A stretch of DNA of 33,126 nucleotides from Reclinomonas americana ATCC 50394 (GCA_048213135.1 PS015191.1:89920-123045), one strand, 5' to 3'. Positions 1 through 31,051 are shown, counted from the stretch's first letter. The notes: generated from the sequence alone by a model not told the origin. Translations and numbers: made by a program.

Positions 1-1
1 G

Positions 2-1701: not shown

Positions 1702-2624
1702 AATGGGGCCGAAGCATGTTGCCGGGTCGTCGACACAATGCACCGGGAGACGGATCGTCGCGTGGAGACGAGGCGCATCAGCAGCACGATGCACCGCCGT
1801 CTTCGCAGACCGAATCGTTGAGTACGCGTCTCGGCGATGAAATGCAGAGTGTGGTTGTGCTGACAGCGCCATGTGGGCGTGCAGGTTGTCGGCCTCGAAG
1901 CCGGCGGGTGAGAGTGGCAAGCGAGTGGTGTTGGAGAGTGTCGCCGATGTGCAGGAGCCGGTGTGGCACTATCGTGGAACGCATGGGCAGGATGAGGGAC
2001 CGTGTACGCTGGTGAACCTGCGCAGCTGGTACCAGGATGGTTTCCTGGCGCACGACACTCCGGTGTACAAGGCCGGCGGGGAGAAGATCCCTCTCGATAT
2101 GCTTATGCGCGCCGTGGATGAGGCTGTGGGTGGTGGTGGCGCACAACAGCACCAGCCGCAGCATGTGCTTCCGTCGCAGCCGAGTCTCCAGCAGCAGCAG
2201 CAACATCTTCGACAAGATGCCCCGCATGTTGGAGGTCTCGCATTGTCTGCGCTACGAAGAAGCACCTCGCAATTGATCTCATTTCATCTGGTGCAGGTGG
2301 TGGTGTTATCAAGGCAGAAAACCTGGAGCACATGCTTGGCTCCATGCACATGGACACTTCCTCACAGCAGCAGCAGCAGCAGCAGCAGCAGCCGATGATG
2401 GGTGGTGGCTTTGCGTTCATGGGAGGCATGCAACAGCTGTCTCCGATGGGTGGTATGCCGCCGCCTCCGATGCCGCAGCTTGGCGGCTTCCCGCATCCGG
2501 GACTCGCCGGTCCGGGAGGCATGCCCATGCCGCCACCTCCGTTTGGTCTCGGCCGGGATCTGGGAATGGTTGGCATGTCCGACGACTTTTTGCAACAGCA
2601 ACAACAGCAACAACAGCAGCAGCA
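1702..2624 (+). CDS. Partial gene: GYF-domain-containing exons of a GIGYF/Smy2-like protein
   Basis: Acceptor CACAG at 1701; introns 1817-1884 and 2235-2296 restore one frame. WHYRGTHGQDEGPCTLVNLRSWYQDGFLAHDTPVYK resembles the GYF consensus W-x-Y-x4-G-x3-GPF-x4-M-x2-W-x3-GYF, and is followed by polyQ. Confidence 0.75.
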
Positions 2625-3161
2625 NNNNNNNNNNNNNNNNNNNNNNNNNNNNNNNNNNNNNNNNNNNNNNNNNNNNNNNNNNNNNNNNNNNNNNNNNNNN
2701 NNNNNNNNNNNNNNNNNNNNNNNNNNNNNNNNNNNNNNNNNNNNNNNNNNNNNNNNNNNNNNNNNNNNNNNNNNNNNNNNNNNNNNNNNNNNNNNNNNNN
2801 NNNNNNNNNNNNNNNNNNNNNNNNNNNNNNNNNNNNNNNNNNNNNNNNNNNNNNNNNNNNNNNNNNNNNNNNNNNNNNNNNNNNNNNNNNNNNNNNNNNN
2901 NNNNNNNNNNNNNNNNNNNNNNNNNNNNNNNNNNNNNNNNNNNNNNNNNNNNNNNNNNNNNNNNNNNNNNNNNNNNNNNNNNNNNNNNNNNNNNNNNNNN
3001 NNNNNNNNNNNNNNNNNNNNNNNNNNNNNNNNNNNNNNNNNNNNNNNNNNNNNNNNNNNNNNNNNNNNNNNNNNNNNNNNNNNNNNNNNNNNNNNNNNNN
3101 NNNNNNNNNNNNNNNNNNNNNNNNNNNNNNNNNNNNNNNNNNNNNNNNNNNNNNNNNNNNN
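2625..3161. other. Scaffold gap (537 N)
   Basis: Run of N. Confidence 1.
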
Positions 3162-3199
3162 CTTGCATTCCTGTGACACACACATGCACATACACAAAC

Positions 3200-4175: not shown

Positions 4176-4252
4176 GTGTGTTGTTGTTTGCTCGTGTTGC
4201 GTGTTGTGTTTGCGTTTTAGTCGACTGGTCATTCACTGTCTTGGTGTTCAAT
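4176..4252. promoter_or_regulatory. Putative bidirectional promoter region (77 bp) between the GIGYF-like and mS25-like genes
   Basis: Positional inference; contains an initiator-like TCATTC near 4229. Confidence 0.4.
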
Positions 4253-4724
4253 ATGGCGGGGCGCGCGGCTGTCTCACGCACTCTTGCGTTCCTGCGTTCG
4301 TCGCCTGTGATCAAGCTGCGGCCTGATGTCGAGGGCATGACAGTGGCGTATGCAAAGAAGGGCGCGGGCATGGCGGGCGCGAGGTGAGAGAGAGAGTGAG
4401 AGCAACAACAGTGTGACTGCCTCTGACACACGCATGCGCATGCAGGCACTTCTTGTATGAGGTGGTGCCCGTCATCAAGTTCCACAACGAGCAGGTGCGG
4501 ACGCAGGTGGAGAAGTCGGCGACGAGCGACACTGCAGAGATCCGCGTGCATCTCAGTTGCGCACACACTCTCTCTGCGCACACACACACACACACGCAGA
4601 GACTGACATTGTTGGTGTGCACACACACACAGAGGGAGGTCAGTCAGAGACGATTGCGGCCAAGGGCGTGAGTGCAGGCGACATTCGACAGGCGCTGGTC
4701 AGCAAGTTCTCTCAACCACAATGA
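4253..4724 (+). CDS. MRPS25: Mitochondrial ribosomal protein mS25-like (L51/S25/CI-B8 family), 3 exons
   Basis: Introns 4384-4445 and 4556-4632 give MAGRAAVSRTLAFLRSSPVIKLRPDVEGMTVAYAKKGAGMAGARHFLYEVVPVIKFHNEQV...KFSQPQ*. This is colinear with animal MRPS25 as I recall it (GRFPIRRTLQYL...MTVNY...GARKF...IPQIQYKNP). Confidence 0.75.
4562..4631 (+). repeat. Intronic (CA)n/(CT)n microsatellites, representative of many introns in the window
   Basis: cacacacacacacac and ctctct runs here; also at 7222-7245, 7652-7667, 8737-8750, 9153-9164 and 16738-16751. Confidence 0.85.
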
Positions 4725-4777
4725 ACACAGTCGTCCATTGAATAGAAGATCATCGCGTGTCAGTGTCAGTGTGAGAG

Positions 4778-6097
4778 ATGGCCAGTGGATCAGCAGCAGA
4801 TGTGCAAGCCGCGGATCTCAGCAAGGAGTTTCAGCGACTGATGGCGCGTTGCCCGTGGAGTGAGGTAACACACAGTGTGTGCGTGCGTGTGCTCGTGTTG
4901 ATGTGCATGCCCAACTCGCACACGCTCTCTCTCAGTGGGAGGAGTTCTGCGCACACGTGACCACTGCCATCAAAGAACGCGAGAAGCAACGATGTTACGC
5001 ACAAGAGGCGCACGCACGCAGGTTTGATCGTTCCGCTCTCTCACTCTCTTCTCTGTCTGTCTGTCTGCAGTCGGCAACGATCGTCGCGTTCGTGTCATGG
5101 CCGATGTGAAGCGCGAGTTGCGGCGACTTGTGCCTGTCTCTGGCGAGGCACCCGATGAGCACATTCACTTCCTCGGCCTCGAGGAGGTTCGTCACTCGCA
5201 GTCACTCATGATCCGAACATCGCCCCCTGACCTCTTTCTCTCACACAGTACGAGGGCTACACGCCCGCCAACACCGCACACGTCGACAACTTCCTCTTCA
5301 CCGACGACGAGGTCGATGAGCAGGTGGAGGAGGGTCAAATGAGCCGCAACTACTGCTTGGATTGCGGATCGCGACGGTGTCGTCCCCTCAACTTTATCTC
5401 GCACTCGTTCAGTGAGGCGCAGCTGCGCTTCATCTTTGGTCCGCACTGCCTCGGCGATATCACCGGGAAGACTGTGGTCGATGTGGGGTCGCGGCTGGGC
5501 ATTACACTGTATGCTGTTGCGTGTTGCGGTGCTGCATCATCGCCCAGCACCCATCGCCGTCTCATGATTGTTTTTCCGCAGGGTCATGTGTACTCGCAAG
5601 CGCGGCTGCTGTGGGGCATTGAGATCAACCAGTACTGGGTGGATCTGACGGAGCGTGTGGCGCGCAAGTTCCACATGGAGGACCGAGTGAAGGCCACGCT
5701 GACGGATTTCTTTGCGGCGCCGACGGGCGAGGCCGAGGATTGTGTGGCGGCCGCCGACATTGTGATTATGCACAATGTGTTTGAGTTCTTTGTGGAGTCG
5801 ACGGAGAAGTTGCGCGAGGCGTGGGATCGTGTACGGGATCGACTGTCGGCCAAGCCGGGTCTGCTGTTCTTGACGTCGCCGCCGTTGGAGGTGTCGCTGG
5901 AGAATGCAAAGGTGAGCAACAGGAGAAGAATGCAGACCGAGTTGCCTTGCCCTCAAAATGAGCGCGCGTCGCAGTGCGAATGGTCGGTGGAGGACTGGCT
6001 GGAGGAGGTGCCGATCACACATCCACTGGCGCTGGACGATTTCACGGGCGAAATGGAGCCACAGTGCACCGACATTTGCCTGTACCGAGTGCGATGA
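4778..6097 (+). CDS. Uncharacterised class I SAM-dependent methyltransferase with N-terminal CxxC, 6 exons
   Basis: Introns at 4865-4935, 4994-5070, ~5187-5248, 5516-5581 and ~5912-5974. Motif I VVDVGSRLG, post-I GIEIN, ADIVIMHNVFEFF, and upstream HVDNFLF..SRNYCLDCGS..FISHS. Confidence 0.8.
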
Positions 6098-6176
6098 ACG
6101 ACGCTTTATATGTAGAAGAGCTCCCTCTCTCCCTCCCTCTCTCCCTATCTATGGTGGCGCGAGAAATCATAAATCA

Positions 6177-7397: not shown

Positions 7398-7454
7398 GGT
7401 CAAGAAAGCAAGTGCGGATGGATGGTCGACGGACTGATCGCAGTCACGAAAGCA

Positions 7455-10400
7455 ATGAGTGGTGCGTGCTGAGAGTGTCTCGCTGTGTGTGTCTGTGTTC
7501 ACGCGCGCGTACACACGCTTGTGCACTGCGCTTGTGTGTGCGTGAGAGAGATAGACAGAGAGAGCACACGCAGTATGCGAGAGCGTGTACGAGTTGCAAC
7601 GGGCATGACACACTTGCCCACAAACACGCTTGTCACTCAACACACACGCGCCTCTCTCTCTCTCTCTTTCTGTTTGTTGTGCACAGGGTACTTTGGTGGT
7701 GGTGGTGGCGACGGCGACAGTCTTGCGTCGTCGTCGGCGTTTTCCACGACTGGAAAGTACGTGGTGGCGCGATCGGCCGAGGGCGCTGTGCATTACTTTG
7801 CGCGAGGTGAGTCGCTTCTCTCACACATGAGAGACGCAGACACACACAAGAGCACACCACAATGAGATTATCGACTGCCGAACGAATTCGCGATACCCGC
7901 TCTCACTCTTCATTCACTCTCTCTCTCACACACAGGCGATGGATCGGTGCCAACGAGTGCACGGTGCGTGTAGGTGTCGCGTCGCTTGTGGTGAATGTTT
8001 ATCCTTCTATTCTTACTTGCTTTAGTGGCGATTCTGTGCGCAGGTCATCGCCGCAGCGTGTTGCGTCGTTTGTGTGTTTTTCGAATAATCGCCCGTTTCG
8101 ATGATCGATCGGCCTCATTTCGCTTCTGCGTGTAGTTTCATGAGAATGGTGGCAGTGCAACGCACTCACCAGCCGCTGGCGGCGATCGCGGCTCGTTGTG
8201 GGTGCGAATGATGATCGATTTGAGTTTTTATTGTGTTTTTTCGTTGTAGTGAGCTTATTGGTTGGTGATGATGGACAGGGCGTCGGTCGCGATGGCGATC
8301 TGGACTCGTTTCGACAGCGGTATGTGTGTGTGCGCGTTATGGATTCGTGTAATGATCATGCGCGTTCATGACATTGGTGCATGACGACAGTGATCCGTCG
8401 CCCTCGCTGACGAATGGACGATTGCATGCGTCGCGATCGCCGCGTCGATCGCGTTCGCCCATTCATCGGGTGCGGTTGTTTGTGTGTGGGGGTGTATGTG
8501 GAAGAGGCGGTGAGCTGACGTGTTGCGTGACAGGCGAGTGATTTCGACGATGCGCCACGTCATTTTGTGAAGCAACCATTTTCGCTCGAGTCGCTGTCGC
8601 CGGGGTTTTCATCGTCACGGTTGTCGTCGGCGCAAAGCAGTCCGATGACAGAGGCCGTGCTTCGATCGTCGTCGTCGCGAATCTTGTCGTCGTCGGGTGG
8701 CTCGTCGACGATTCGACGAAGCGGCACGCGGGTATGTCTCTCTCTCTCTCTTTGCGCGCTCCCCTCTGTGCTGCTGGCAGTGCCTTACGCACACACGCAC
8801 GCACACACCACCAGCTGGCAAAAGTGATTGAGGGACCGAATCGCGAGCGCAGTTATGTGCTCACCGAAGACGAGTTCCGCAGTGTGCACGAGGATTTGGA
8901 GGTGCATAATGACGTCACATCCACACACCAGTCTCCCGAGAGTATTCACTCGCGCTTTGCAGGAACGTGATCGGTTGGAGCACAAGGTACGGTTGCTGGA
9001 GACCGACAGCGCCATTAAGGAGGCCAAGATCCGTGGCTTTGAGAAGGAGAGTGCACAAAAGACCGGTGTCATTAGTGCGCTGCAGGAGAAGGTTGGCGAC
9101 ACGGCGTGTTGTGGCGTGCATGTTGATTTGCTCTCTTACGCGCGCGTGCGCGCACACACACACAGGTTCGTGACATGGAAGAGCAGCGACGGCGGCTCGA
9201 GCAGGACCGCCACTTGCTCGACAGGGAACGAAAGAACTTGCAAGAGAGCAAGAGCGAGACGTCTCTGTATGCACGCCGCGAGACGGAAAAGCTGCGCGAT
9301 CAGCTCAAGGTGTGTGTGCGCGTGATGTGCTTGCGCCTGGCGTATGCACGTGGTGTTGCTCACTGGCAGGCGGTTGGGTGGCACAGGCGCTGCAGGCCGA
9401 CAATGCTGCGTTGGAAGCTCGTCTCGACGAGGCGCGCTCGCAGCTGGTGCAGGCCAGCACGCAGTCGTTCCAGACAAAGCGCGACGTCGATGTGCTGCGT
9501 GACTCTGCGAAGGTTTGCAACGCGTTGGCACGCATGTCTGCATGTGCGTGGTGCTGAATAGTGCGTGTTGTGTGGAGCAGGAAATCGAGTCGGAGAATTC
9601 GGTGCTTCGTGCGCGACTGGAGGAGACGCGGCGTGAACTGAGCGAGAGCTTGCTTGTTCGTGACAGCACGTCCAAGGTTTGTCAGAAACCGGTTGCACGC
9701 AGCGCACTGTGTGCGCATGTTGGTGGCGCTGACGCACATGACAGTTGGGCGAGACGTCACAGCAAATGCGGCTGGAGAAGCTGGAAAAGCAGGTGATGCA
9801 AAAGGACACGCTGCTGGCTCGATTGCAGGAGGAGATACGCCACACAGAGGATCGCTATCACGAGGTCGAAAGGGAGCGCAACCGTCTGCGTGATGAGCAA
9901 CGCTCGATGCGCAGCTCGGCAGAGATGTCTCTGTCAGCGCGACGGGATGTTGACACGCTGCGCGAGCAGAACCTGGTTTGTCAGCTTGTTTTGACTCTTT
10001 TGTGCCACGCTTGCGTACTGCGGGAGTGACGGAATCATATGCAGGAACTGGAGGCGCGCAATGCGTTGCTGGAGAGCCGCTTGGATGATGCTCGTCGTGA
10101 GTCGGCCGATCGAACCGCCGCACTGCGGTCGCTTACGAGCCAGGTTTGATCGCGTGCGCGCGCACACACTTGCTCGAATGAGTTGGTTCGCGCTCATTGG
10201 GTCGCGCGTGGCAGAATACCATGTTGGAGGAGCAGCTGAGAAGATACGAATCGCAGCATAGCGTCAGCGACACTGTTCGGCAAGAGATCCAGCGTGCGCA
10301 CGAGCGTGCCAAGGTAGGCCTGTAGACACTGTTTTATTATCCCTTTCCCTGCCCTCACGGTTGCTGGCGAGAGCAGGCTGCCGAGCTGGAGCGGCATCGT

Positions 10401-13400
10401 CTGGAGGGCCACTTGCAGGAGACCGAGGCGTCGCTGAAGGCCAAGACGATACGTGTCACTGAGTTGATGGATGAGGTATACACGCGACGTTGTGCAAAAG
10501 TAAGTGTGTGTACGCATGTAGTGCTGACACCTCCGCATCTGCAGCGTGCACAATTGAAGAAGGAAGTGTTGCGACTGAGCACGGAACGCGAGACTGGCTC
10601 ATTGTCGCGACACGAGTTCGACACGATGACGGAGCGGTATCGAGTTGCGTTGTGCTTTCGATTTCCGTGTGGATGGCTTCATGTGTTCCTTTGCTGAACT
10701 GCGCGCGTTGCAGCAACTGGAATCCACACATTTGCGTGCTCAGGACCAACTGGCCAGTCTGCAGACGCGCTACGCAGAACTCGAGCGCGAGCTGTCGGAC
10801 AGCAAGCTGAGTGATGTGGAGCAGGAGCAGCGTATCCGCGAGCTGGAGACGGAGGTGTGGTATCGGTTTTTTTGCTTTCGGCCACTGTGTGTGTTCCATT
10901 GTCTGACCGTGCTGGGTCTTGCAGAACCGCAAGTTGGCGGAGCGAATGCGACACTCGGAGCCGCTGTCCGATCGTCTCAAGTCGTCGGAGCAGGAGCTTG
11001 CGCGTTTGCAGGCCCGCCTAAAGGTGCGTGTGCGTGGCTGGCCACACTGTGTTCTCGCTCTTCTAAAGTGTTGCGGCGCAGATTTCGGAGACCGAGCGAG
11101 AGCACCTGTCCACCGTGCTCAACTCGTCACATCGCGACCAGTCGCAATCGTCGGTGATTATCGACGAGCTGCGTCGGTTGAATAGCAGCCTCGAAGACAA
11201 GGTGGCGCTGTACGAGGTGCGTCTGGCGGAAATGGACGAATTGCAGTCGCTGCTGAAGCGTGTGGACTCGGAGAAAGTGGAGTTGGCGCGCGAGAGCGAG
11301 CACGCGAAGGCGATGCGGATGAAATTGGCACGAACTGAGGAGCAAGTCGCGGTGCGTCTTCTTACGCATGTCGCCGTCCACCAAGCATTTATGCTCACTT
11401 TCCTTCTTGTGTCCCGCCACCAGGCTGCCGATCGGGAACGCACTCGACTGCAAGCCGAAATGAACAGCAGCCGACTGCGCAACGACGACTTGGAGCGTCA
11501 GGTGGTGGAGTTGCAGCAGCGCCTGTTTGACCGCGATCACGCAGCGACAGCTGCCGAGGAGACCACTCACCGGCTGGAGGAGCGCGTTCGCCACTTGGAA
11601 AACGTGCGCAGTTCTGCCGAGGGCACCAAGAGCGATTTGTCGCGCCTCCACGATCAGCTGCATGAGTTGGCACTTGAGCGTGACCGGTTCCAACGCGAGT
11701 TCGCTACCGAGTCGAAGCGCAGCCTGGCCAAGGACACGACCATTGAGGAGCTCCGATCGCAGGCCGAGGTGCTGCAGGGCCGCTACGAGGCCGCCTTGGA
11801 GCAGCACATGCAGGCGCAGGCACAACTGCGTGCCGAGTTGGAGTCGCAGCGACACGGCCACGAAACGCAGCGTCGCGACTGGGAGCTGAAGCTGGAGGAA
11901 ATGCGTGCACAGTTGCTCGCGGCGAAGCGCGAGGCAGAAGGCACTCGGCTGGAGCTGCAATTGCATCAGGAGGAGCACGTGCGCGAGTTGTCTCGACTGC
12001 GGGAAAATATTGAGCGAGAGCAGACTGCCAATGTGCGCCTGCAGGAGCGGCTCGACTCGGTTGCGTCTCTCGTGTCCGCGAGAAGAGGTGTGCGACGGCC
12101 CGTGCAACTCACTCTTCACTTGTGTGCCACACAGTTTGCCACCGACTCGGTGGGTGAGTCGACTCGCCTTCATGCTCGTCAGGTTCAGCTGGAGGGCCAG
12201 TTGTCGTCACGCACTCTGGAAGTCGATCGCCTGACGACGGAGCTCAAGTCGACGCAGGAGGTTTGTATGTGTGATTGCATGCCTCGCAGTTCTCCTCTTC
12301 AACAGACACTAACGTGCTTGTGCGCGCGCTGCCATAACAGGCGCTGTCGGCGCAGCTCGAAGAGGTGGCTCGGCTGCAGGTTGATTGCGCTCGCCTGCAG
12401 GAGCTGGTCTCCACGTCGTCCATTCGCGAGCAAGAGCAGCGGAAGGCATGGGAGGAGAAGCTGCATCATTTGGAGCTGCAGTTGCAAACGGAGCGACAGA
12501 ACTTTGTCAAAGCCAAGGACCAGTGGCGACAGGGCGAGGATGCGCTGAGTGGCGACAATCAGCAGATGCGAGCGGCGTTCAGCAAGGTGTCGGCCGAGCT
12601 GGATGCGTCTCGCTCTCGCGTGCACGATCTGGAACGCGAGGTTGCCAGTCTGCACAAGGCGGAGGCTGACTTGCGTCTGGACTTGCAAAAGAAGAACTCG
12701 GCGTTGCGTCGCGGCGGATCTTGCTGTTTTCCCATGTTCACTGTTTGTGTGTCGACTCTGATTGCGTGCGCATTTCATGCTGCAGGCTGGCCGAGTCCAT
12801 GGGAGAGCGACAGCAGTTGGAGCAGCAGTTTGCCATTGAAAAGGAACGCCTCAACAACGAGCACGTGGTGCTGCAAAAGGAGGTTGGCCGCCTGCGTGGT
12901 GTGGACACGGATCTGACGGCGGCACGAGGCGAGATTTCGCGACTTGAGCGGCGTGCACGCGAGCTGGAGACGCGGCTCAATGAGGTTTTGTGTTTCTTCC
13001 GCCCATGTCTTTTATCGCCACCCAGTTGCATCATGTCTCACCTGTACTCGTCGCCACGCCAGCTGGTGGATCGAGCGGACGAGGCTGCCGCGGCGCACAA
13101 GGCCGAACTGGGTCGTTTGCATCACGAGCTGGACGAGATACGACCGGCGGCACTCAAGGCGCAGGCTCTCGAGAAGGACTACGCGGAGCTGCGGTGAGTA
13201 TTCTTCACGTCGTTGCAAATCGTGGTCGATAGCTCACTTTTTTTGGTCACAGACACGCCATCATGTCGGATGCGGACCAGGAGAGTGGCACACCGACCAA
13301 GCGCAAGCACTCGAACCCGGCCAAGCAGCTGCTTGACATGCACAAGAAGGCACAGGAGCAGTTGCAAGAGCTGCGCGCGCGCAACTTGGAGCTGTCCCGC

Positions 13401-15323
13401 GACTGCATGGCACTCAGCGAGGAGCGCAAGGAGATTCGCAATCTGTTGGAGGCCAAGGTTTCGTGATGATTGTGTGCTTGGAGGGAGTCAATTCTGTTGT
13501 GCGTTCTGACACGTGCGCGCGCGCGTTGACAGGTCTATCAGCTGCAGGACGAGAAGAATGCGCTGGAGGTGGAGAATCATCGGCTGGCCGGTGTGGAAGC
13601 GCAATACAAGCGAGCATCAGTGGAGCTGGAGGAGTGGCGCAATCGGGCCATTGTTGCTGAACGGCAGTTTCGTGGTGGACTCCTCATCGTTGGCATTTAT
13701 TGCATGTTTCTCATCCTTCGCGTCAGACTGGAGTCGGCGACCATGTCACATTCGTCGCTGGAGAAGGATGCGCGATCATCGCAGCTCGACGCCAACCGAC
13801 TGAGCGAGGAGGTGGAACGACTGCGGGTGGAGAAGGCGCGCAAGGAAGAGGTTATCTCGCACCAGGTGGAGGAGTTGAGGTCGCTGCGTGAGGCGCACGA
13901 TGCACTGAATGCCACGCTGAATGACGAGAGCGCTCGGAGGGCGCGACTGGAGGGTGCGTGTAACTACCCCGCGTCTCCCATCCTTTTCTCTCTGCCGTCT
14001 CAAGCAGTGTGTCGCAGCAGGCACGAAGAGCAAATCGGAGGAGGAGCTCGTCTGGAAGGTGCAGCAGCTGCGAGTGCAAAAGGACAGCGCCGAGCGCCGC
14101 CTGCGTGAGAAGTCTGCCGACATGACCAAAGTGGAGGAGGAGCTCAAGTCGTGGAAGACAGTGGCCAACGAAGAGAGCAACGCACGCAAGCGCTGGGAGC
14201 AGCGCTGTGTGGAGCACGAGACCGCGCTGAAGCGACTGCAGGGTCAGATTTCGGGATTGCGCGAGCAGAAGCGCAAGGCCGAGACGGAAGCGCAGCACAT
14301 GAAGAAGGAGCTGCAGGTACGCAACACATGGTCGTGGCTGTTTCTTTTGTTCCGTGATCCTCACACTCCGAGTGTCTGTCTGCAGTTTGAGCGCGAGCGC
14401 TCCAAGCGGAGGGAGGGCCTGCAAGAAAAGGACCGCACCCGCTCGCGCAGTGCCAACTCGCGGGGTCGGTCGTCAAGTGAGACTGTGGACGAGGTGGGCG
14501 GGCTGGTGCGGGGCACATATGCATTGAGCGTTTTTTGTTGTTTTTATTGGGACCATTCTCGTTGCGCTTACTCTCGGTCTGTTGCTGCTGCACAGGCGGG
14601 TGCCACCAATGCCCTGAATCGTGCACAACACGAGCTGGCCAACCAGGAGCGTCTTCGTGAGGACCTGGACGACGTGCAACGCATCTTGGAGGACGAGGTC
14701 CGCAACAGCGGCAACCGATCGCTGGATTCGAGTTTCGACATGGAGCAACTGCGCGGCTCGCCCGTCATCCAGGAGAGCAGCTATGTGTCGATGTGAGTAC
14801 CACGTCGGGTGCGCGATTCACACTGTGGAGCCGGCGTCTCATCTTGTTGTGTGATTGCAGTCCATCGCTCGGTGTCGCTCTGCACGGCGCCCCGGCACCG
14901 TTCTCCAGCCCACAACCCGCCGCCGGTCGCCACTCGTCGCCAGCCACACGGCAGTCGCCACCTGGACCTGTGCTGATGTCGTCGCCAGCAGCGCCGCGTG
15001 TCCTCTCCATGTCGGGCACATCTACCACGGTCTCCGGTCATGGGACCATCACGCGCACGGTGAGCAACAGCAGCGTGCACTCCAGCAGCAGCAGCATCAT
15101 GTCGGCGTCGCACAATTCCGCCGCCGCTCCGAACCGCCCACCGTCGCGGCCCACCAGCGCACCGCGACGACCGTCGCCAGGCGTGAACAGTCGCCGTGTG
15201 GGTGGTGGGTACACCACGGGCGATGCCGACGCGTCTGCGTTGAGCAACTCGACTTCGTCACTCCGTATGAGTGGCGGTTCGTTGTCGTCGTCGCACGAGA
15301 AGAGTGTGCGTTTCCCGACGTGA
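7455..15323 (+). CDS. Large (~2000 aa) coiled-coil protein with S/R/P-rich disordered ends, about 24 exons; cytoskeletal/centrosomal-like, function unknown
   Basis: E/R/L/Q/A-rich heptad exons from ~8815 to ~14700, linked in frame by about 23 GT-AG introns, ending HEKSVRFPT*. The first two small exons and the start at 7455 are tentative. Confidence 0.75.
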
Positions 15324-15605
15324 GTCTGCGTTTTTTTATTTTTTTGGTGGAGCGCAGGCCTTGTTTCTTCTGCGTATTTTTCTCTTTCTTTTACAGTGGT
15401 TTAACGACGTATCAAAGTGTATGCTTACTTGATGTTTTAATTGTAGCAAGACGCAAAAGCACCACACCTGGATAGCTGTTAAAGGAAGAGCAGTGACACA
15501 CCAAGCGCCTGCTCGTTGCCGGAAAACGAGCCAGAAATCAAAGCTTGTCGCGTCTTCGGCACGACAGGACAACCTTGCATCTTCCGTCATCCACGAGCGA
15601 CCACC

Positions 15606-17134: not shown

Positions 17135-17180
17135 GAGCATCGGAGACAGCGATTGGTGCAAAACAATTGATTAATGAAAA

Positions 17181-20100
17181 TCACAAAAAAAGGGCTATAA
17201 CAACAGCAGAAACAAGGCTAGAGATTAAGATGGTGCGGAGGGCGGCGGCAGGAAATCCGCCGACCGCCGCTTGATTAGTTGTGGCACTGATGCGCGTCGA
17301 GGCACTTGGCGGCTGTGTGAACCATTTTTGCAATGTCAGCAAGAATTCACGCAACTTCATCAACCACACAACGGCACGCAACAGACGAGCCGTAGCCATT
17401 GATGGCGCGCACAGTGACCGAGTATGAAACATTCTGCAGTGCAGTCAGTTGGCGAACCCAAGCAGGCAGAGAAGAGAGAGAGAGAATGGTTGGACATACC
17501 GGCTGGAGAGCAGACAAGGTGGCGACGAAACCGTCACCAGTGGTGATACCGTCGTCGGGGCGGACATAGGCCTGCACCGATGGCCAGTTGCCGTCTGGCA
17601 CCGCGACGACTAGGTATTGCAACAGCACACCACGGCCGATGCTGGCCGGATTCGACCACGTGAGCCGCACTGCAGTGCGACTGAGTGCTGACAACACTGT
17701 GACGGCCTGCGGAGCAGATGGAACGGGATCTACGGCGAAAAAAGTCAGGCACTCAAATCGAGGCGAAAGCACAGCATGTAAAAATTGGTTGTTGACGTAC
17801 CTCGCGTGCGCTGAGTGACAATTGGAATCGACAGAGGCCCGTGTGCTCCCGCAGCGTTGCGAGCCACCACGTACACCGTGTACGCAGCAGTTGGAACGAG
17901 TGATTCGACGAATGCACACAAACTGTCGCCGACATCAATACTCTTCATCTCCATGCCGTCGTCAAACAGCTCGTCACTGCACGTCGACAAGTGAGAGACG
18001 AACACACAGCAGTGCGACTCGTGCGGATTCGTTTGTCACCTGTCGGGAAGCGTACGCTGAACCACTCGATAGTAGATGACCACATATGCAGCAGCATTGA
18101 CCGCCGGCAACCACGTCACACGAATCGTCTGCATACCTCGGATGTGAGCACTTGGAAAAACACACAAGCAATGCCACGGTACGCAACGTCATATGTCGTC
18201 TCCTGCACCTGGAGTGATTCAACGGCCTCAGGAGTGTCTGCATGCAGTCGAACACGTCAGCCACCACCTCCCATCGGGTGCGAGCAACTTGTCTCTCACT
18301 CTTCTGGCACTCACCTGGGTCTCCTGGGGGCTCGGCCTGCGTGAACGCGGCAGGCGAGTCATCACTCTCGCCAACACTGTTGATGGCCGTCGCGCGTGCC
18401 CGATACAGCGACCCAACGGCCTTCGTCTCCAGTGTGTACGAGCGTGCCGATGATCCGAGTTTCACTGGCGCAACGGCGTCGTCACCAACAGTCTTGCACA
18501 ACTCACTGATGAGCCAGCAACTTCCACACAAAAATTGCATGCAAGCGGCACAAGTGATTCACCTCAAAGTACAGCACAAAGCCGTCGACGGGCGAGCTCC
18601 CCTGGTGACCGACTGACCAGGCGAAGTGAACGCGGGTCGTCGCACTGAATGCAGGACGCAGCAGTGGCGGCGATGGCACGCGACCGGTGCGCACCACGTT
18701 GTCGAGCCCGTTCCCTGCCGTGGCAGCGTCGACCGCAAACGAAGATGCTTGCTTCGCACCACCTGCGGCGTTTGCTGCACGCACGTCGATGCGATACTCC
18801 ATGTTTGCCGTCAAGTTTGTGAGAGTGACACTCATTCCCGTCGTCGAGACGGTGTACCCGGTCGGGTCGCTGCCGTCGAGTCGCCAACATGTGACATTGT
18901 ATGAGAGAATGGAGCCGGCGCCGCCCGTCTCCACAGGCTCATCCCACTGCAGTGCAATCTGTGACGGCAGCATATAAGACTCGGCTCACTGTACATGGTC
19001 ATTGTCGACGCAAGTCACCTGATCGGTTCGTTTGCGCGACAACACAGAGACCACCGAGTCGATGGATCCAGGCACTGAGGTTGTGCAAGATCAGGCGCAG
19101 CAAGTATGAATGGAGAACACGAAGCAGACTCACCGGCCGCTCCTGTGGAGGTGGTAACAGTGACATTGTTTGATGGCGTCGTTCCGATAAACCCATTGAA
19201 TGCGACAATGTAGAACAGACTGCCCCCGATGAATGGCAACCCGTGTCAGACTCATCAACTCTCCCCCTCTCTCTGTACACCACAACCGCAACTATGTTGT
19301 GCCGGCGGCCAGATTGTTGATTGTCCCTGTTCGCACTGCAGCGAACGATTTCGTCATGCACGGGAAGCTGCGCTTGCCATAAAAACCAGTCACTGTGGAG
19401 TTACCGGCGACGGTACCATTGACGGCATGCTATTCACCACCCACACGCACACACACAGTGCTGTCAGCGACCGATGTCAAAATGACACGCTGCGGAACAG
19501 ACCGACGCACATAATACACAATGTATTGCAAATCATCGTCGTCGAGACTCGCTTGTGTGCCGATTGAGGAATCGGTCGGAGAGGTCCACGCAAGGCGCAC
19601 AAAGCCGAATCCATGTCCCGTGACAGACAGTTCGGGCACAGGATACGGGGCTGCAAGGGTGCGTGAGAACAGTATGCCGTGGACACAAAAAGCTGCACCC
19701 CTAAGAGCATGGCACACACCAACAATGGGGTTGGCGGCGTGCGTGACACCAACAGATGCCGTGCCGACACTGGAACCAGCAACGGCCTGTATGCGGTGCT
19801 CGTATGCGAGTCCAGGAGCTGCGTGCGTCGAGACTCTTAGCCACTGAAGTGAAACGCACAGAAAAGATACACAAGTGCAGCGCACCAGTTGGGACGACGG
19901 CAGTGGTTTGCGTGCTGGGCACGACAGTGTGCCGCATGCAACTGTTCCTGTAGACCTGCACAACCTACAGAGGAGAAACAGACAATCAAAAACACAAGGC
20001 AGACATTACGCGCTGGTGACAAGTCTGCATACCCTGTAGGCGGTAATGGGACGGCCACCGCGCACGACTGGCGGAGACCATCGAAGGCCAACCGTAGCAT

Positions 20101-23100: not shown

Positions 23101-25670
23101 ACGGTCAGCAACGAATGTGAACTTGTGACTCACACGCACACACAGAAGGAACTCACCGGTTGCACCCGTATCGGTAATATCAACGATACTGACGGCACCG
23201 AGAGCAGCCGGTGCGGTGCTTGGTGAGTTTGCAAATGCGAACGAATCGGAAATGACTCGGCGTGAGCTCGGCAGTCCACCTCGGCCATTGTCAACAATCA
23301 CCTAGCTCACGGCCATCAGTCCATCCCACACGAACAAGAAGTCACCAATAAAACAACGCACTTGAAACTGCGTCTGTGTAATCACGTTGCTGGTCTGCAG
23401 CACGACAATGAACGAACTCGCCGTCTTGACACTGGTGGGTTGCGCACCGCCGGCCACACCAAGAACTGCCATCGATCAATGGCCGTGAGATGCGAGATGG
23501 CGCAAAAGTGCAAGAGTGCGATGCAACTCACCCGGGTACGCCACTGCCGTCGACGGCAACGCATTCTCCACCGAACAGCCGCCGGAGCAGTCAGTGAAAG
23601 CATAGTCGAGAGACAGCGTGGATGCGACTGGCTGTCCAACATTGACTGGGCGTGCTACACAGAGAGCCACCCAATCGTAGCCGATCTAAAGAATAACATC
23701 GTGAGCGATTACAACTCCCAGCAAACAGCCATCCCATGCAGCGCACACGCACGCACCGCCATGGAGCGAGTACTCGATGCGCCTGAGCGGCTGCAGAGAA
23801 CGGGCGGATTGCTCTGCGCTCCTGCTGCGATGAAGGGAACCGCAACTGTGGCCGTCGGTCCTGCTCCATGGTCATTGACAGCGGTGACCTGCGCGTGCGA
23901 TGGGATGAGTGCGTGGCCTGCGCGGATGCAAGTGTTGTCGCAGCCTCACAAACCTGCACCGTGACCGCTTGCGTGCAGTTTTCAATACTGGCGACAAGCA
24001 TGCGGTCAGTCATGTCGGTGCTGGTGATGGAGGCGGTGCATCCAGCCGTCAACGGCACCGCCACCATGCTGTACGTGAGATCGCCCAGCAGCCCCGTGCC
24101 GCCGACAACCAGCGGCACGACAAACGACAGCGATGCCGACACAGTGGTCGCAGTTGGCGTGCGCCACACGCGCGTCAGCGACAGGGAACGAACTGCAGAA
24201 GGAACTGCACAGCATGTCTTGTCAACACGCACGATACAGCAGCAGCAGCAGTAGCTCGACGCAAACCAGCGGCTGTGGCTGTGGTGGTAAACGAGTATGC
24301 CGCCACCGTCGCAGTATCCTGTGTCACGCCAACACCGAGAGCATTGACGGCAGCCACACGGACTCGGTATGTCATCAGTGGCATCAGTCTGCCGACGACA
24401 ATCTGTTCCAATGCCCCAGCGAGCGTGCGTGAGACACACGGTGAAACCATCAGCTGTGGAGGAACCATCGAGCCCACCTGCGCGCCCGTAACACGACCGT
24501 TTGCGGTGAGCAACCGAACTGTGCCGCTGGCCGGCGTCCACGTGGTGGCGCTCAACTCTGCCACCTGCACGCAACAAGCTCAGCGCGCAGCCACTTCCGA
24601 TGTATTCTCTTGCGCACACGCTCGCTGTCTCACCTCCACATGAAAACCCGTAATCGTGCTCCCAATGGTGACCGGAACCGACCAGCTCAGCAGCGCTCCA
24701 TTGGCGGCCACGGCCTCCGCGGCCAGCACCGACGGCACAGAACCCGGTGTCTGTTTCCCACTCATGGTGTGGAACGACAGCGGCTGCACCGACCACGTAC
24801 CGAATCCCACACTATTGATTGCACGCACACGCGCCAAGTAGGCCGCGTCGGGTGTGAGGTCATCCAACGACGCCACCTGTCGCTTCTCACAATCTGCATT
24901 GAATGTGTTGGTCGACGCCACCGGCGGCGCCTGCCATGAGCTGCCCGTCACATCGCTGCGCTTGACCTGCACCTGATAGTACGGCGCCACCAGCGTCGTC
25001 ATGCCCCACAGCAGGGGAGCATTGAACGAAATCACCGCACCCGTGCTGGTGAGCCGATCCACGAGTAGAATCGACGGCGCCGCCGGTGTGCCCGAGATCG
25101 GCATGGTAAACGGAAGGGCAGTCGACGGCGTGCCACGACCATACGCGTTCACTGCGTACACCTGCTGATGGCGTGAGTCCCACGTGCGACGGGGAATGAG
25201 AGAAGAAGACGCACCACAGCAGAGTACGAGGCACCCTGCACGATGCGATGCTCGAACTCGGTAAGCACCGCCGATCGCGCCTCGCTTCCATCGACCGTCA
25301 CTGTTACATCCACCGGCACCGCGTCGCTCACCACCACGGCCTCGGCGGAGGTTCCGGCGGTGCGCACAGACGACACCACCACCTCGTATCCAGTCACCGC
25401 CGCATTGCCCCAGTTGAAGGGCCCATCGTCCCACGCCACCGTCACACTCGCTCCTTCATCGCTCTGCCCCACAGCCTTGATCTGCGCCGCCGTGTGAACG
25501 TCGATGAAGACACAGAGAGTGAGAGAGAAAGAGACAGAGGACGCAACGATGGCCACCCCGCGCGGTGCACCGGGTGAGCCAAGCACCGGTGAGTCAGCAC
25601 GGACCAGAAGCAGTGGAACAAAGAAGAAGAGGAGGAGGAGGAAGAAGAGAAGGCATTCTTGCCGCCGCAT
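17181..25670 (-). CDS. Giant secreted fibronectin type III repeat protein (~2100 aa, at least 12 FN3 domains), probably GPI-anchored
   Basis: Signal peptide MRRQECLLFFLLLLLFFFVPLLLVRA. Recurrent FN3 signatures (V/L-x-W-x-x-P; YRVRVAAVNALG, YLARVRAINSVG, YRIDVRAANAAG, YSVTVRAINGYG). Ends in a hydrophobic tail ...LRTILISSLVSAVVIALFL*. Internal exon boundaries were only partly traced. Confidence 0.82.
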
Positions 25671-25713
25671 CCACAGTTATCAAGCTTGCAGGACAACACA
25701 CCAACTCAATCAA
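25671..25713. promoter_or_regulatory. Putative bidirectional promoter region (43 bp) between the FN3 gene and HisRS
   Basis: Positional inference only: it is the sole non-coding DNA between two divergent start codons. Confidence 0.45.
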
Positions 25714-28700
25714 ATGGCGGAGAGCGAGGTGAAGACGGTGATTATCGGCGGCGGAGTCGGCGGTGCCGGCAAGGCCGGTGTCTCCATCGATGACTTGGTG
25801 CGCGTCTGCTACTCCACCGAGGCCTGGGAGACTGCAATTCCGCACCCGATGGCTCGTGCACGAGTGGCCATTGATCGCGCCGCAGTGCTGCGCATGACCG
25901 CCATTGCCGCGTCGGCCGCAGCCGGCAGCAGTGGAGGGGAGGAACAAGCGGCTTCGGTGGCGGCGTTGGTCGAGGGCGTCTTGCAGGGTGGACTGCCAGT
26001 TGCGTGAGTCGGGGGAGATGTGAGGACATGCACACCTCCCCCCTTGGCGCACTCCCTCTTCCTCTCCCTCTCTTTCTCCCACTGCATGATCATTACCGTA
26101 CACACATGCGGCACACTTGCCCCCCAACTGTGCCTCACATTGTCGCAAGTTGCATGCTCATGTTGGATGATGATGATGACATGCAGATTGCGCCCGAGTT
26201 TGTTCGTGGTCTGCTTCTGGTGCGTGCCGCGGCAGCATCGAGCACCGCGCACTCGGGAGTCTCCAAGAGCACCATTGAATACTTGGTGGCGCTGCTCAAC
26301 AGTGACATGACGCCGGTGGTGCGTGCGACTTGTCCCTCGCTGTGCAGTTGTGTGCATCAGTCGTGTTCTCAATCTGAGCCGAATGCAGCTCTTTGTTCCG
26401 GATAGCAACGGTGCGGAGATTGACCTGCGTGCCTACTTTGCCGCATTGCTGCTTGGTCGTGGTGCGTGCCCGCCTCTCTCTTTGAGTGTGTACGCAGCAG
26501 AGCTGATGGCTGGCATGATCAGGAAACTGCATCTGCAAGGGCGCGTTTGGTGAGCTGTCTGGTGCTCTGTCGTTCTTCAAGGTGTCGCTGCCGACGCCAC
26601 CGACTGTGGCGGAGATCGATTTCCTTGCGCTGAATGCGGCTGCTACGCTGTCGATTGTGGTCGCTGCCGTGACGCAGTATCGTGCAGAGGTGTGTGTTTA
26701 TGTGCGCGTCCTGTGCTTGCCGGTGTTGTCTCATCTCGCCATTCGTGCATGCTAGTCGCTGGTGGAGACTGCTGACCTCGTGGCGAGTTTGTATTTTGAG
26801 GCACTGGGACGACCGGCTGNNNNNNNNNNNNNNNNNNNNNNNNNNNNNNNNNNNNNNNNNNNNNNNNNNNNNNNNNNNNNNNNNNNNNNNNNNNNNNNNN
26901 NNNNNNNNNNNNNNNNNNNNNNNNNNNNNNNNNNNNNNNNNNNNNNNNNNNNNNNNNNNNNNNNNNNNNNNNNNNNNNNNNNNNNNNNNNNNNNNNNNNN
27001 NNNNNNNNNNNNNNNNNNNNNNNNNNNNNNNNNNNNNNNNNNNNNNNNNNNNNNNNNNNNNNNNNNNNNNNNNNNNNNNNNNNNNNNNNNNNNNNNNNNN
27101 NNNNNNNNNNNNNNNNNNNNNNNNNNNNNNNNNNNNNNNNNNNNNNNNNNNNNNNNNNNNNNNNNNNNNNNNNNNNNNNNNNNNNNNNNNNNNNNNNNNN
27201 NNNNNNNNNNNNNNNNNNNNNNNNNNNNNNNNNNNNNNNNNNNNNNNNNNNNNNNNNNNNNNNNNNNNNNNNNNNNNNNNNNNNNNNNNNNNNNNNNNNN
27301 NNNNNNNNNNNNNNNNNNNNNNNNNNNNNNNNNNNNNNNNNNNNNNNNNNNNNNNNNNNNNNNNNNNNNNNNNNNNNNNNNNNNNNNNNNNNNNNNNNNN
27401 NNNNNNNNNNNNNNNNNNNNNNNNNNNNNNNNNNNNNNNNNNNNNNNNNNNNNNCGGCGCTCGAGCAGGCACTCTACGATGTGTCGCACCCGCACAAGGT
27501 GTGCTGCGATGATGAATCTGCTCTCTTTTCTTTCTCTATCTCTGCTCCTCTCACGCCCCACGCAGGGCATGATCCGTTCGGCAGAGGTTTTGCGTGCCGT
27601 CACAGACGGAAGCAAGTTGCTGATCAAGTCGACGACGGCCAAGTCAGGCGATGAGGCCGACGAGGCGGCTCCGCCGGCGACCGGTGGTGAGAGTGCTGCT
27701 GCGGGTGGCGATGACAAGGGTCGACGAAAGAAGGGTGGAGCGGCGGCGCCTGCCGGAGGAAAGAAGGGAGCAGCGGCTGGCAGTGGCAGTGGCGCTGAGT
27801 CCACCGCCGAGGCCGCGGTGGCGCCCGGTGCGTGGTCATCAGTGTGTCAGGCTCACGGTGTCGCTCGTGACGCACTCTCCGTCAGTCACGGTATGTCGAT
27901 GTGTGTGCTGCGTGTGTGTCAGAGCATGCACCTTATCGCCACTGCCGTGTAGAGCGTGTTGCGGTGGAGTTGCGCAGCGTGGAGCCCGGCAGTGCTGCAG
28001 AGACAGTGTCGCGTGGCGGCGCATTCAATGGAGCCGTCGTGTCGCAAGTGGCCGCATCATTGGCCTTCACTCTGCAGTCGCTCGCGGCGGCCTCGTACGC
28101 ACGCTTCCGTGAGCTGGTGCAACAGGGGGCGGCCGAGGCGCACGCATCTGAGCTCTTTGAGGGTCGCTTGAGCGATGTCGCGGTGCGTCTCTCTCTCCAT
28201 TCCGGTGCTCATCTTTTCCTTGAAGCGACTCATGGGAACCTGTGAATGTTGTTTTGGCAGGGTTTTGTGGTGCGTTCTGCCGCCGTAGTGGAGCGCAACT
28301 TTGAGGTTGTCGGTGGTGGTGACGCGACTGAAGTTCCGCCGGCATGGCGACGTGCGCTGTTGACGTCGAGTGTGACCGATGTGTTGCTGTCGGTATGCGA
28401 AGCGCGGCCACGCTTGTCTTTTCCTCGTTTGTGTCTACGACTTACGCACTTGAATGATAGGTCCTCTCGGCCGAGGCGGCGTGCTCGGTGCACATTTTGG
28501 GTGCGATGGAGAAGACGCTGCGAGACAAGGTGTTGGCGAAACTCGGCGACAGTTGCGTGTGCTGGGACCCCGACGCGCCATTGATCCACGCTAACCGCCT
28601 GCGCGCAGAGCCGGCCCCAAAGAAGCTGCCGAGTCTCGTTCTTGGCAAGGGCACTCGCCTGTATCGCGATCTCCTGGCCGAGCGCCACACCGTGCCTGCG

Positions 28701-30926
28701 TCGGTGTGTGTGCTTCTTGCATCCGACCATGTGTTCACCAGTCGCTGACAGTATGTTGCACAATGCACAGAACCCAGAGGATGTGCAGCAGCTGGTGCAA
28801 GCGCTCACTCTCTTCTGCGACCCGTTCGACGTGGCTCACCGACAGGCCACTCGCGAAATCGTCGAGTCGCTGACCACCACCAGCATGCGCAAGGCCAAGA
28901 CAGCCAAAGTGCGCAAAGTATTCACTGACCACGTTTGGCAGGCACCAGTGTGTCTCATTACCCGCTGCAGGGCGCACGCGACTACGGACCAGCTGAGATG
29001 GCCATTCGCGAAAAGGCTTTCAACATCATCACGCGAGTGTTTAAGCGTCACGGCGCCGTCACGATCGACACGCCGGTGTTTGAGTTGAAGGAGACCCTGA
29101 CTGGCAAGTACGGCGAGGACTCGAAGCTCATCTACGATTTGGCCGACCAGGGAGGCGAGCTGCTGTCGCTTCGCTACGACCTCACGGTGCGCGAGTCGTC
29201 AGCCGCTGCCTTTCTTGTTCAGCACTTCACTTACTTATTATTGCTCGGACGTGTTCACAGGTTCCGTTCGCCAGATACGTCGCCATGAATGGTGTGGGCT
29301 CCATCAAGCGCTACCACATTGCTCGAGTGTACCGCCGCGATCAGCCGGCCATGAACAGCGGCCGGTATCGCGAGTTCTATCAGTGTGTTGCGTCGTCTTG
29401 CTGCCCGAGTATGGTGGGCACTACGTGCTTGCGGTTTCCTCATGCACGTTGCAGGACTTTGACATTGCTGGTTCGTTCTCGGCCATGCTGCCCGACGCAG
29501 AAGTGGTCAAGGTGCTCGAGGAGATTCTGAGCGAGTTGGATATTGGCTCGTTCATGATCAAGGTCAGTGCAAGTATCCACCTCTCTCTTGTGAACTGTCC
29601 TCGACGCTGATGCGTTCTTTTTTTGGTCGGGCAGATCAATCACCGCGTGCTGCTCGACGCCATGATGGCGGTGTGCGGCGTGCCGACGAACAAGTTCCGC
29701 ACCATCTGCTCCTCCATCGACAAGCTCGACAAGGTGTGTTTTGTGCGATGGGACCATTGCAAGTGTCTGCTCCAGTGACTCACTGACTGCCCCCGTCGTC
29801 GCGTGCAGAACTCGTGGGAGGAAGTGCGTGCGGAGATGGTGAACGAGAAGGGTCTGGAACCGGAGGCCGCCGACCGCATTGGCGAATTTGTGTCACTGAA
29901 GGGTGTGTGTCTCGTGTGCGCTAGTGGATTGATTGCACACTCTTTTACCTGACTCCAAATGTGCCACAGGCAATCCGCACGAGCTGCTCGAAGTCCTCCG
30001 TGGCAACGCGCTGCTCGCAGCCAGTGCCGACGCACAGCGCGCTTTCGAGGATCTCAACAAGCTGTTTGACTACCTGCGCGCCATGGACGGCCTCAACCAC
30101 GTGTCATTCGACTTGAGTTTGGCTCGTGGCCTGGACTACTACACGGGAGTCATCTACGAGGCGATGGTCACCAGTGCGTACCTACGTCGCTCTACCGTAC
30201 CGCATGATGGTGCTGAACTTGTGCCATTCGTGCAGCCACCGATCGTGTGGGCAGCATCGCCGGTGGCGGTCGTTACGATGGCCTGGTGGGCATGTTCCAC
30301 CCGTCAGGCAAGCAGATTCCGGCCGTGGGAGCCTCGATCGGCATTGAGCGTGTGTTTGCATTGTTGGAGGAGAAGGAGAAGCAGGTGCGCGCGCGGTCTC
30401 GTGTATTTCGTATTCCCTCGCCGTCTGGCTCATGACGTGGTGTCTCGCACAGCTTGGTCTGCACGAGCAGACTCGCGCATGCCCGTCACAGATCTATGTG
30501 GCGACTATTGGCAAGGGTCTGATGGAGGCCCGCCTGGCCATCGCCAGCGAATTGTGGCGTGCCGGTCTGCCAACGTCGTACTCCTATGCCGAGAACCCCA
30601 ACATCAAGAAGCAGCTGGATTCGGTGCTGGAAGATGCCATTCCGTTTGTCGTGGTGCTGGGTGAAGACGAAGAGAAGGCTGGTGTGGTCAAGGTTCGCCA
30701 TTGTTTCCTTGTGTGTACGACGATAGCATACCGCCTTGCCGTATTGTGCTGACTGTGCTACTGTGTGCAGGTGAAGGACATGGCGCTGCGAACGGAGGAG
30801 ACGATTTCGCGGGCCGACATGGTCGCCCACTTGCAGGTGTTGTGCGCAAGACCACCCATCCCGGTGGTTCCACAGCCAGCTGGTGAGAGTTCGGCTGGCG
30901 AGGGAAGCGGCTCGTCGTCACAATGA
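25714..30926 (+). CDS. HARS: Cytosolic histidyl-tRNA synthetase with N-terminal histidine ammonia-lyase-like domain
   Basis: HisRS motifs [92 protein letters not shown] and SIGIER. The N-terminus has HAL-like segments ([41 protein letters not shown]). Confidence 0.93.
26820..27454. other. Scaffold gap (635 N) inside the HisRS gene
   Basis: Run of N. Confidence 1.
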
Positions 30927-31051
30927 TGCGGCAAAAAGTCAATTTGGTAGAGTGAGAGCAAGAAAAGAGAAAGACTGAGTTTGGAATACACATGATTAAC
31001 AATCCATTCATTAGCTTGCGTTTGTTGTTCTCCGTCGCCCGACTCGCAAAA

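Follow-up and report, generated by a model that had tools for sequence, protein, structure and literature searches.

At an ordinary 5' splice site, the G at intron position +5 and the U at +6 are read early by C4-A3 of the U1 small nuclear RNA (snRNA), whose standard arm is ACUUACCUG, and at the catalytic stage by the AC of the U6 ACAGAG box (ACAGAGA in standard form). A U1 register shifted by one base (+1) was reportedly described by Roca & Krainer in 2009. The paper of Tan et al. 2016 (PMC4856993) reports that both bulged and shifted U1 registers have been experimentally validated in human cells; its Table 2 gives ACAGUCAAGUAUA as an example oligonucleotide for the shifted (+1) register, and its Table 3 predicts a +2/+3 bulge at 68 and a +3 bulge at 51 of 201,541 human sites. 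Here, we analyse a window of 33,126 nucleotides (nt) from Reclinomonas americana ATCC 50394, with positions counted from its first letter, in which roughly every sixth intron begins with an offset donor (5' splice site), most often GTTGCGT. Such donors lack the G at +5 (G+5) and carry G and T at +6 and +7 (G+6/T+7), as if one base had been inserted after the GT of GTGCGT. A preliminary description of this DNA had called bulged U1 pairing known but minor in model species, and the human figures in that source agree, as the two bulges make up less than 0.1% of sites.

The preliminary description had listed 18 offset donors, 11 of them beginning GTTGCG, and at the level of the sequence its observation is confirmed. 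The strings stand at 18/18 coordinates on the correct strands, with GTTGCGT at 10 of the 11 GTTGCG sites (4556 reads GTTGCGC) and no exonic G at -1 (-1G) at 10 of the 11, 12060 alone having one. Its estimate of about 18 in roughly 90 introns also holds in two gene models. The first is blind to donor sequence; it applies dynamic programming to codon-versus-intron trinucleotide log-odds and GT..AG alone, and yields 88 introns and about 6100 open codons. The second, matrix-trained model adds a length prior and a single matrix each for donors and acceptors, and yields 107 introns. G+6 without G+5 is found in 20/88 introns of the former and 19/107 of the latter. By category, the matrix-trained model has G+5 in 71 of its 107 donors, G+6/T+7 without G+5 in 13, G+6 with another base at +7 in six, and neither G+5 nor G+6 in 17. 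The ordinary donors are those named before, with GTGCGT (14 of the 71 G+5 donors), GTGAGT (9), GTATGT (4) and GTTTGT (4) among the commonest hexamers alongside GTGTGT (8) and GTGCGC (5).

A lack of G+6/T+7 excess over the intronic background had been named as the result that would tell against the pattern; we find an excess of about 4-fold among donors without G+5 (13/36 versus 41/476 intron-interior GT sites; odds ratio 6.0, p=1.8e-5). Likewise, the donor-blind model taken outside the giant FN3-repeat gene gives 10/24 against 39/415 intron-interior sites from all modelled genes. The heptamer itself follows the same trend. GTTGCGT occurs 19 times on the two strands, against 8.88 expected (sd 3.16) from 100 dinucleotide-preserving shuffles, of which 0/100 reach 19. 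It stands at 5/88 donors versus 6/1884 other sense-strand GT sites in the donor-blind model (p=5.9e-5), and at 8/107 versus 6/1989 in the matrix-trained model (odds ratio 27, p=8e-8). Ten of the 19 copies are donors already listed, one (28552) is a further donor candidate, and four are antisense or intergenic. Overall, the counts support an offset donor class that makes up 12-18% of the model introns in the window and represents a genuine, non-random variant of the start signal.

The earlier view of these sites as normal donors with one base inserted also stands. Their +4 to +7 tetramers (GCGT, GAGT, TTGT, TCGT, GCGC, ACGC and GCGG) all fall within the canonical +3 to +6 set, and 12 of the 13 G+6/T+7 donors have T as the extra base, at +3. 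Across the 107 introns, GCGT starts at +3 in 14, at +4 in eight and at +5 in two, with 0-2 per position elsewhere, which argues for a sharp one-base slip and not for a floating enhancer. Because a canonical tetramer is displaced by a single base, with T as the extra, the reader of +5G/+6U is probably shifted by one base as well. We consider it about an even chance (probability roughly 0.5) that the offset G-U is read by the ordinary splicing machinery one base further on, by a reader whose identity we infer.

Two offset junctions are fixed by conserved proteins. With a spliced protein-to-DNA aligner that follows the GT..AG rule only and has no donor matrix, the 68-nt intron 29387..29454 (+; tgt|GTTGCGTCG ... 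gttgcag|GAC), in the histidyl-tRNA synthetase (HisRS) part of a fused gene, is removed in 112 of the 115 spanning alignments from 120 homologues run; one of the others takes donor 29414 and two have no intron. Similarly, tblastn with fused homologues ends residue n at 29386 and starts n+1 at 29455 in 4/5, so the REFYQC|DFDIAG junction first read from protein motifs is upheld. In the methyltransferase-like gene, exactly 5516-5581 (+; a 66-nt intron, gct|GTTGCGTGT ... ccgcag|GGT, also taken by the donor-blind model) is removed by 30/30 homologues, the first 30 of 102. Since this intron is in frame and stop-free, only homology can reveal it. The second GT within GTTGC|GT was considered as the true donor; it is canonical at 25999 only, and homology excludes it at 29387 and 5516.

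Other junctions fixed by homology show how donors without the offset behave. In the gene for deoxyribose-phosphate aldolase (DeoC), 20 of 150 homologues, picked by length and N-terminal match, fix donors 16240 (20/20), 16377 (19/20), 16716 (13/20), 16872 (17/20) and 17005 (16/20), and 11/12 picked homologues of the queuosine-salvage gene take donor 6453 GTTAGT. Two of the DeoC donors, 16240 aag|GTCTTTC and 16872 gag|GTAAATG, have no G at +5 or +6 and carry the usual strong exon end, in keeping with the known compensation rule; +5G is thus not obligatory here when the exon ends in AAG or GAG. In the methyltransferase-like gene, an in-frame segment at 5912 (+; aag|GTGAGCA; 51, 63 or 81 nt), which the gene models read as exon, is removed by 24/30 homologues and is a further candidate intron.

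The claim of 18 inferred donors is upheld in large part by the gene models. The donor-blind model picks 12/18 (1817, 2235, 4556, 4994, 5516, 10644, 12060, 12703, 12985, 13458, 13667 and 29387), and the matrix-trained model retains 15/18 with the frame restored, adding 16538, 17382 and 18187; it also recovers the homology-fixed HisRS and DeoC junctions, 6453, 5187 and 5516, and misses 5912. Sites 8060 and 25999 are outcompeted, 16538 is ambiguous and 25547 lies outside the models. A hostile, canonical-only matrix trained on G+5 donors alone, with a penalty of 3.4-3.75 nats for non-G at +5, keeps seven sites, and it misplaces both homology-fixed donors (29387 to 29414, 5516 to 5483). Frame-compatible alternatives were listed for 14 sites; those with G+5 are absent or clearly worse, and mostly depend on GAG or AAG acceptors.

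The long coiled-coil gene holds the largest group of offset donors, all on the + strand. Three of its introns are taken by both models and kept by the canonical-only matrix: 12703..12785 (83 nt, ggc|GTTGCGTCG), with no G+5 candidate among its alternatives; 12985..13062 (78 nt, gag|GTTTTGTGT); and 13458..13532 (75 nt, aag|GTTTCGTGA), the sole donor among seven candidates, whose ban costs 21.2 score units. Donor 10644 (10644..10743, cga|GTTGCGTTG), from the donor-blind model, leads to an acceptor at 10743 or 10713 (100 or 70 nt); it has no G+5 alternative within 7 score units and likewise survives the canonical-only matrix. Two further introns are taken by both models and lost under that matrix, namely the in-frame, stop-free 12060..12134 (75 nt, tcg|GTTGCGTCT), whose G+5 alternatives 12033 and 12090 score 4.2 and 5.4 lower, and 13667..13726 (60 nt, gca|GTTTCGTGG). 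The candidate 8060..8135 (cgt|GTTGCGTCG) lies in weakly coding 5' sequence, where the matrix-trained model favours GTGTGT at 8072, 12 nt downstream, with the same acceptor.

Both models and the canonical-only matrix also keep two introns of the GYF-domain gene, 1817..1884 (+; 68 nt, atc|GTTGAGTAC) and 2235..2296 (+; 62 nt, gag|GTCTCGCAT), as well as 4994..5070 (+; 77 nt, gat|GTTACGCAC), for which only three candidates could be listed, none of them with G+5. The methyltransferase-like gene is poorly conserved towards its 5' end, where both models take 4556..4632 (+; tca|GTTGCGCAC, 77 or 44 nt); homology lends this intron no support, and its alternative, 4546 GTGCATC, is likewise non-canonical. 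In DeoC, the matrix-trained model takes 16538..16606 (+; 69 nt, aag|GTATTGTTG), and the homologues split between this donor, GTATTGT (4/20), and its rival 16528 GTCACCC (14/20).

Within the FN3-repeat gene (- strand), the matrix-trained model and the reading frame place a 70-nt intron at 17313..17382 (tct|GTTGCGTGC), where an FN3 repeat has ended (…YSVTVRAINGYGSS); in the open reading frame (ORF) 17350-17934(-), Pfam matches fn3 up to ORF residue 183, about 17386. They also place a 59-nt intron at 18129..18187 (gac|GTTGCGTAC), joining …PEAVESLQVQETTYD to TIRVTWLPAVNAAAYVVIYY at the start of an FN3 repeat, where the donor-blind model took 18255 instead. The TTYD|TIRVTW junction proposed there fits an FN3 repeat start by eye, although the short exon is not scored by Pfam. 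A candidate 66-nt intron seen in the sequence near the 5' end of this gene, 25482..25547 (atc|GTTGCGTCC), is in frame, stop-free and CT-rich, ends in gcgcag and lies upstream of where the models start. In the fused gene, the candidate 25999..26186 (+; cca|GTTGCGTGA) is ambiguous, with a canonical GTGAGT 5 nt downstream at 26004 that the models take with acceptor 26149. The N-terminal part of this gene, which resembles histidine ammonia-lyase (HAL), gives scores of 47-83 for eight fused homologues with disagreeing donors (25999 in 1/8, 26004 in 2/8), and it is too divergent for 25999 to be placed by homology.

Two extra candidates came from the models: 28552..28608 (+; 57 nt, aca|GTTGCGTGT) in the fused-gene linker, taken by the matrix-trained model only and read as exon by the donor-blind one, and 19220..19292 (-; 73 nt, ata|GTTGCGGTT) in the FN3 gene, taken by both models and with no homology support. 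On the - strand, a single intron start carries GTTGCGT twice, at 17355 and 17382, with 27 nt and no change of frame between the copies, and the two could be a tandem alternative donor pair nine codons apart. Three more copies belong to the 3' ends of introns, in the context TTGCGTG(A)CAG| (8522, +; 20498, -; 24575, -); TGCGTG thus also recurs immediately before acceptors. The introns at 5516-5581 (+), 12060-12134 (+) and 25482-25547 (-) all have lengths that are multiples of three and no stop, and their retention would add 22-25 residues with no truncation.

It is quite improbable, in our estimation, that most of these junctions are mis-inferred, in which case other GT sites close by, canonical or not, would be the true donors and the heptamer would just be frequent where intron starts are T/G-rich. 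Such an explanation would draw on the canonical donors just downstream of 8060 and 25999, on the vote for 16528 over 16538, on coding-score gaps between alternative donors that are often small, and on the GTTGCGT copies at three intron 3' ends and inside one intron (17355). It conflicts with the homology-fixed 29387 and 5516, with the poor alternatives at the 14 sites examined, with the seven sites that survive the penalty on non-G at +5, and with the enrichment over the intronic background. Spurious T insertions in the assembly, turning GT into GTT, are scarcely credible. The four N runs mark a draft assembly and nothing specific speaks for such an artefact, whereas indels at that rate would break frames that are open over the modelled codons; moreover, alignments to homologues keep the frame for 9 or 10 HisRS introns, for 6 DeoC introns and through the exons of the methyltransferase gene.

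Beyond the donor, the offset introns resemble their neighbours. Their median length is 69 nt against 68 nt for G+5 introns, base composition is the same, acceptors are YAG, and 12 of the 13 G+6/T+7 introns have a CTSAY branch-like motif at a distance of 9-31 nt from the 3' end, as do sampled G+5 introns. Judged by these features, they are genuine major-type (U2-type) GT-AG introns, and the proposed second donor class holds for the donor and does not extend to a second intron type, since the 3' halves are ordinary. U12-type introns, whose donor consensus is RTATCCTY, were considered and rejected: that donor has no match in the window, and branch motif, distance and acceptor are as in ordinary neighbours. 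An introner family was rejected as well, as the mean local alignment score among 10 GTTGCG introns (7.73) is no higher than theirs to canonical introns (7.82) or that among canonical introns (7.80).

On the exon side, the earlier remark that -1G is missing is borne out. Only 1/11 GTTGCG sites have -1G, compared with 38/48 G+5 donors of the donor-blind model (p=2.6e-5), and for the G+6/T+7 donors of that model the figure is 3/10 (p=0.004). The GTTGCG rate does not differ from the exonic GT background of 28.5% (p=0.135), which points to no preference rather than avoidance. The bases at -1 (A3 T4 C3 G1) and -2 (C5 G4 A1 T1) of these sites show no clear preference for A or C.

Pairing with U1 was assessed by duplex prediction, bulges and loops allowed, against the conventional 5' end AUACUUACCUG (PMC4856993), from which the host's own U1 may differ. 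The mean predicted energy is -6.3 kcal/mol for the 71 G+5 donors, a set partly selected by a matrix rewarding -1G and +5G and hence with inflated energies, and -4.6 kcal/mol for the 17 donors with neither G+5 nor G+6. It is -2.9 kcal/mol for the 13 G+6/T+7 donors and -1.9 kcal/mol for 10 GTTGCG donors, compared with -2.9 kcal/mol for 1987 other sense-strand GT sites. The duplexes predicted for GTTGCG-type donors are short (2-4 pairs), +8 and +9 are variable, and extended pairing from +4 is not seen. The preliminary description had offered a plain bulged U1 register as an explanation. This part is not supported: with a conventional U1, the best duplex in any register is predicted to be weaker at GTTGCG donors than at random GT sites, so a bulged register alone does not seem to account for recognition.

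The reading of the offset G-U by the ordinary machinery one base further on would then work as follows. The same machinery that splices the neighbouring introns would splice these; one extra U after GU would move the G-U from +5/+6 to +6/+7 (GU-U-GCGU versus GU-GCGU); and the usual +5G/+6U contacts would still read the displaced G-U, with the extra U looped out and the cleavage site still set by the GU at +1/+2. Recognition would probably lean on intron definition, given short introns (median 69 nt) and a strong CTSAY branch motif, and a later U6 check, rather than U1 duplex stability, would probably weigh in. Weak U1 pairing and an unconstrained exon end argue against dependence on U1 duplex stability and in favour of the later contact with U6, of intron definition or of a distinct reader.

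Several results weigh against this reading. Conventional-U1 pairing of the G+6/T+7 donors equals that of background GT sites (p=0.49), and by nearest-neighbour rules an offset register on a standard U1 is not predicted to be energetically favoured. A -1G should aid a U1 duplex with the extra U bulged, yet all but one of the GTTGCG sites do without it. GCGT makes up 8/13 of the offset G+6/T+7 tetramers versus 14/71 of the canonical ones, a share that makes the class more restricted than canonical donors of every kind with a T added. Finally, 7/18 sites lie in the one coiled-coil gene, and all come from one 33-kb window of about 10 genes.

The weak pairing leaves room for an account that we regard as unlikely, in which the sites are relaxed donors or relics: a former GTGCGT received a one-base T insertion that is tolerated because the definition of a short intron in this lineage depends chiefly on its GT, its length, its branch site and its 3' site, and the G+6/T+7 is unread and decaying. 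U1 pairing no better than at random GT sites fits this account, as do the homology-verified donors 16240 and 16872 with no G at +5 or +6; GTGCGT being the commonest canonical hexamer would fit the dominance of GCGT in the offset class. However, those two donors have AAG and GAG ends, and GTTGCG donors, with -1G so rare, would have neither compensation. Unselected relics should also decay in a scattered manner, whereas the full heptamer is intact at eight model donors, and the tandem GTTGCGT at 17382 and 17355 is hard to explain.

Alternatively, GUUGCGU may have a direct reader of its own, be it a variant snRNA copy (U1 or U6) or an RNA-binding protein, which would make these sites a second donor class proper among major-type introns. 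Such a dedicated reader would suit a sharp intronic heptamer with no exon-side consensus and no predicted affinity for conventional U1, and the over-representation of GCGT suits a specific motif better than a general slip. We nevertheless hold it to be rather improbable. With relatives such as GTTGAGT, GTTTCGT, GTTTTGT and GTTACGC, the donors look more like a graded slip than a single fixed word, their introns have the 3' halves of ordinary ones, and an Rfam scan of the window gave no match at the gathering threshold and, at E<=1, two chance isrG matches and no snRNA. To our knowledge, eukaryotes show almost no variation in the U1 5' end, which also weighs against it. More doubtful still is the idea of two donor languages within the major spliceosome, AG|GURNGU and an intron-only GUUGCGU with a partner of its own, putatively a U1/U6 paralogue (with an extra base or an altered 5' arm) or a dedicated protein. 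An own partner would explain why these donors need no -1G or +5G and show no affinity for standard U1.

The window is a gene-dense eukaryotic stretch of about 10 genes, very rich in introns, with a G+C content of about 58% and four N runs. Genes were called by Pfam on stop-free ORFs and by homologue searches, which give the GYF-domain gene (about 1700-2620, +), the methyltransferase-like gene (4290-6060, +), the queuosine-salvage gene (6210-7400, -), the long coiled-coil gene (about 7935-14890, +), DeoC (15730-17130, +), the giant FN3-repeat gene (17230-25550, -), the fused gene with its HAL-like domain followed by HisRS (25710-30920, +) and an unnamed gene (31000-32680, -). The HAL-like part corresponds to Pfam Lyase_aromatic, with a match that begins at 26187; an N run (26820-27454) covers part of this domain, so its catalytic state cannot be judged. 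Fused HAL-like/HisRS homologues of 930-1060 residues are present in diatoms and a number of transcriptomes (P0007, P0012, P0013, P0034, P0044 and P0055). The 5' end of the window (1-990, 2300-2620) codes for long Q/A/P-rich protein sequence of low complexity, and (CA)n and (CT)n tracts abound in introns and spacers throughout (e.g., 4560-4640, 7900-7935 and 25490-25545).

Protein searches with the genes of the window found no near-identical protein and no close relative; the best identities are 51% for queuosine salvage (Q_salvage) and about 40% for the methyltransferase, and identity is high solely in the most conserved HisRS exon. From these comparisons, the organism appears to be a member of a poorly sampled eukaryotic lineage. 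A metagenome scan with a coiled-coil exon gave 105 pattern matches and no relatives, and one with a degenerate REFYQC+GTTNNGT junction pattern gave four AT-rich contigs, all unrelated to HisRS. Full-text literature searching, which did not cover supplements, retrieved no report of a lineage using such donors, and heptamer searches gave nothing relevant.

Should the pattern be genome-wide, more than one intron in 10 would have a donor that standard splice-site matrices reject, and gene predictions for this lineage would be systematically prone to frame errors if the models were given no second donor state. Routine offset donors that work without exon-side help or predicted U1 affinity would offer a natural system for studying 5' splice-site choice, and they open the question of how much of that choice falls to U1 pairing and how much to U6, U5 or intron definition.

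Among known systems, U12-type introns share with these sites a rigid intronic donor word and no exon-side consensus. With introners, the resemblance lies in a terminal word identical between several introns and in exon positions that lack the usual AG|G; the difference is that GTTGCG introns have no similarity past the first 7 nt. The shifted (+1) register is closer, as G+6/U+7 replace +5/+6 and +1G stands in for -1G; it needs no exonic G, which fits the rarity of -1G at GTTGCG sites. Human examples, however, have a long pairing run from +4 to +9 (AAGUAU), whereas GTTGCGT in this register offers only G.U, a mismatch, G-C and U-A. The human bulged sites (Roca et al. 2012, as presented in PMC4856993) are alike in having an extra nucleotide after GU, G-U at +6/+7 and a major-type intron. 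They differ in frequency, less than 0.1% of human sites against 13-19 of the 107 model introns here, and in that the human register, as that source defines it, rests on a free-energy advantage, whereas the donors of this window stand at the level of random GT sites and leave -1G unused. Bulged and shifted registers as such are already known in human; what appears to be new in this window is the routine share of one-base-offset donors.

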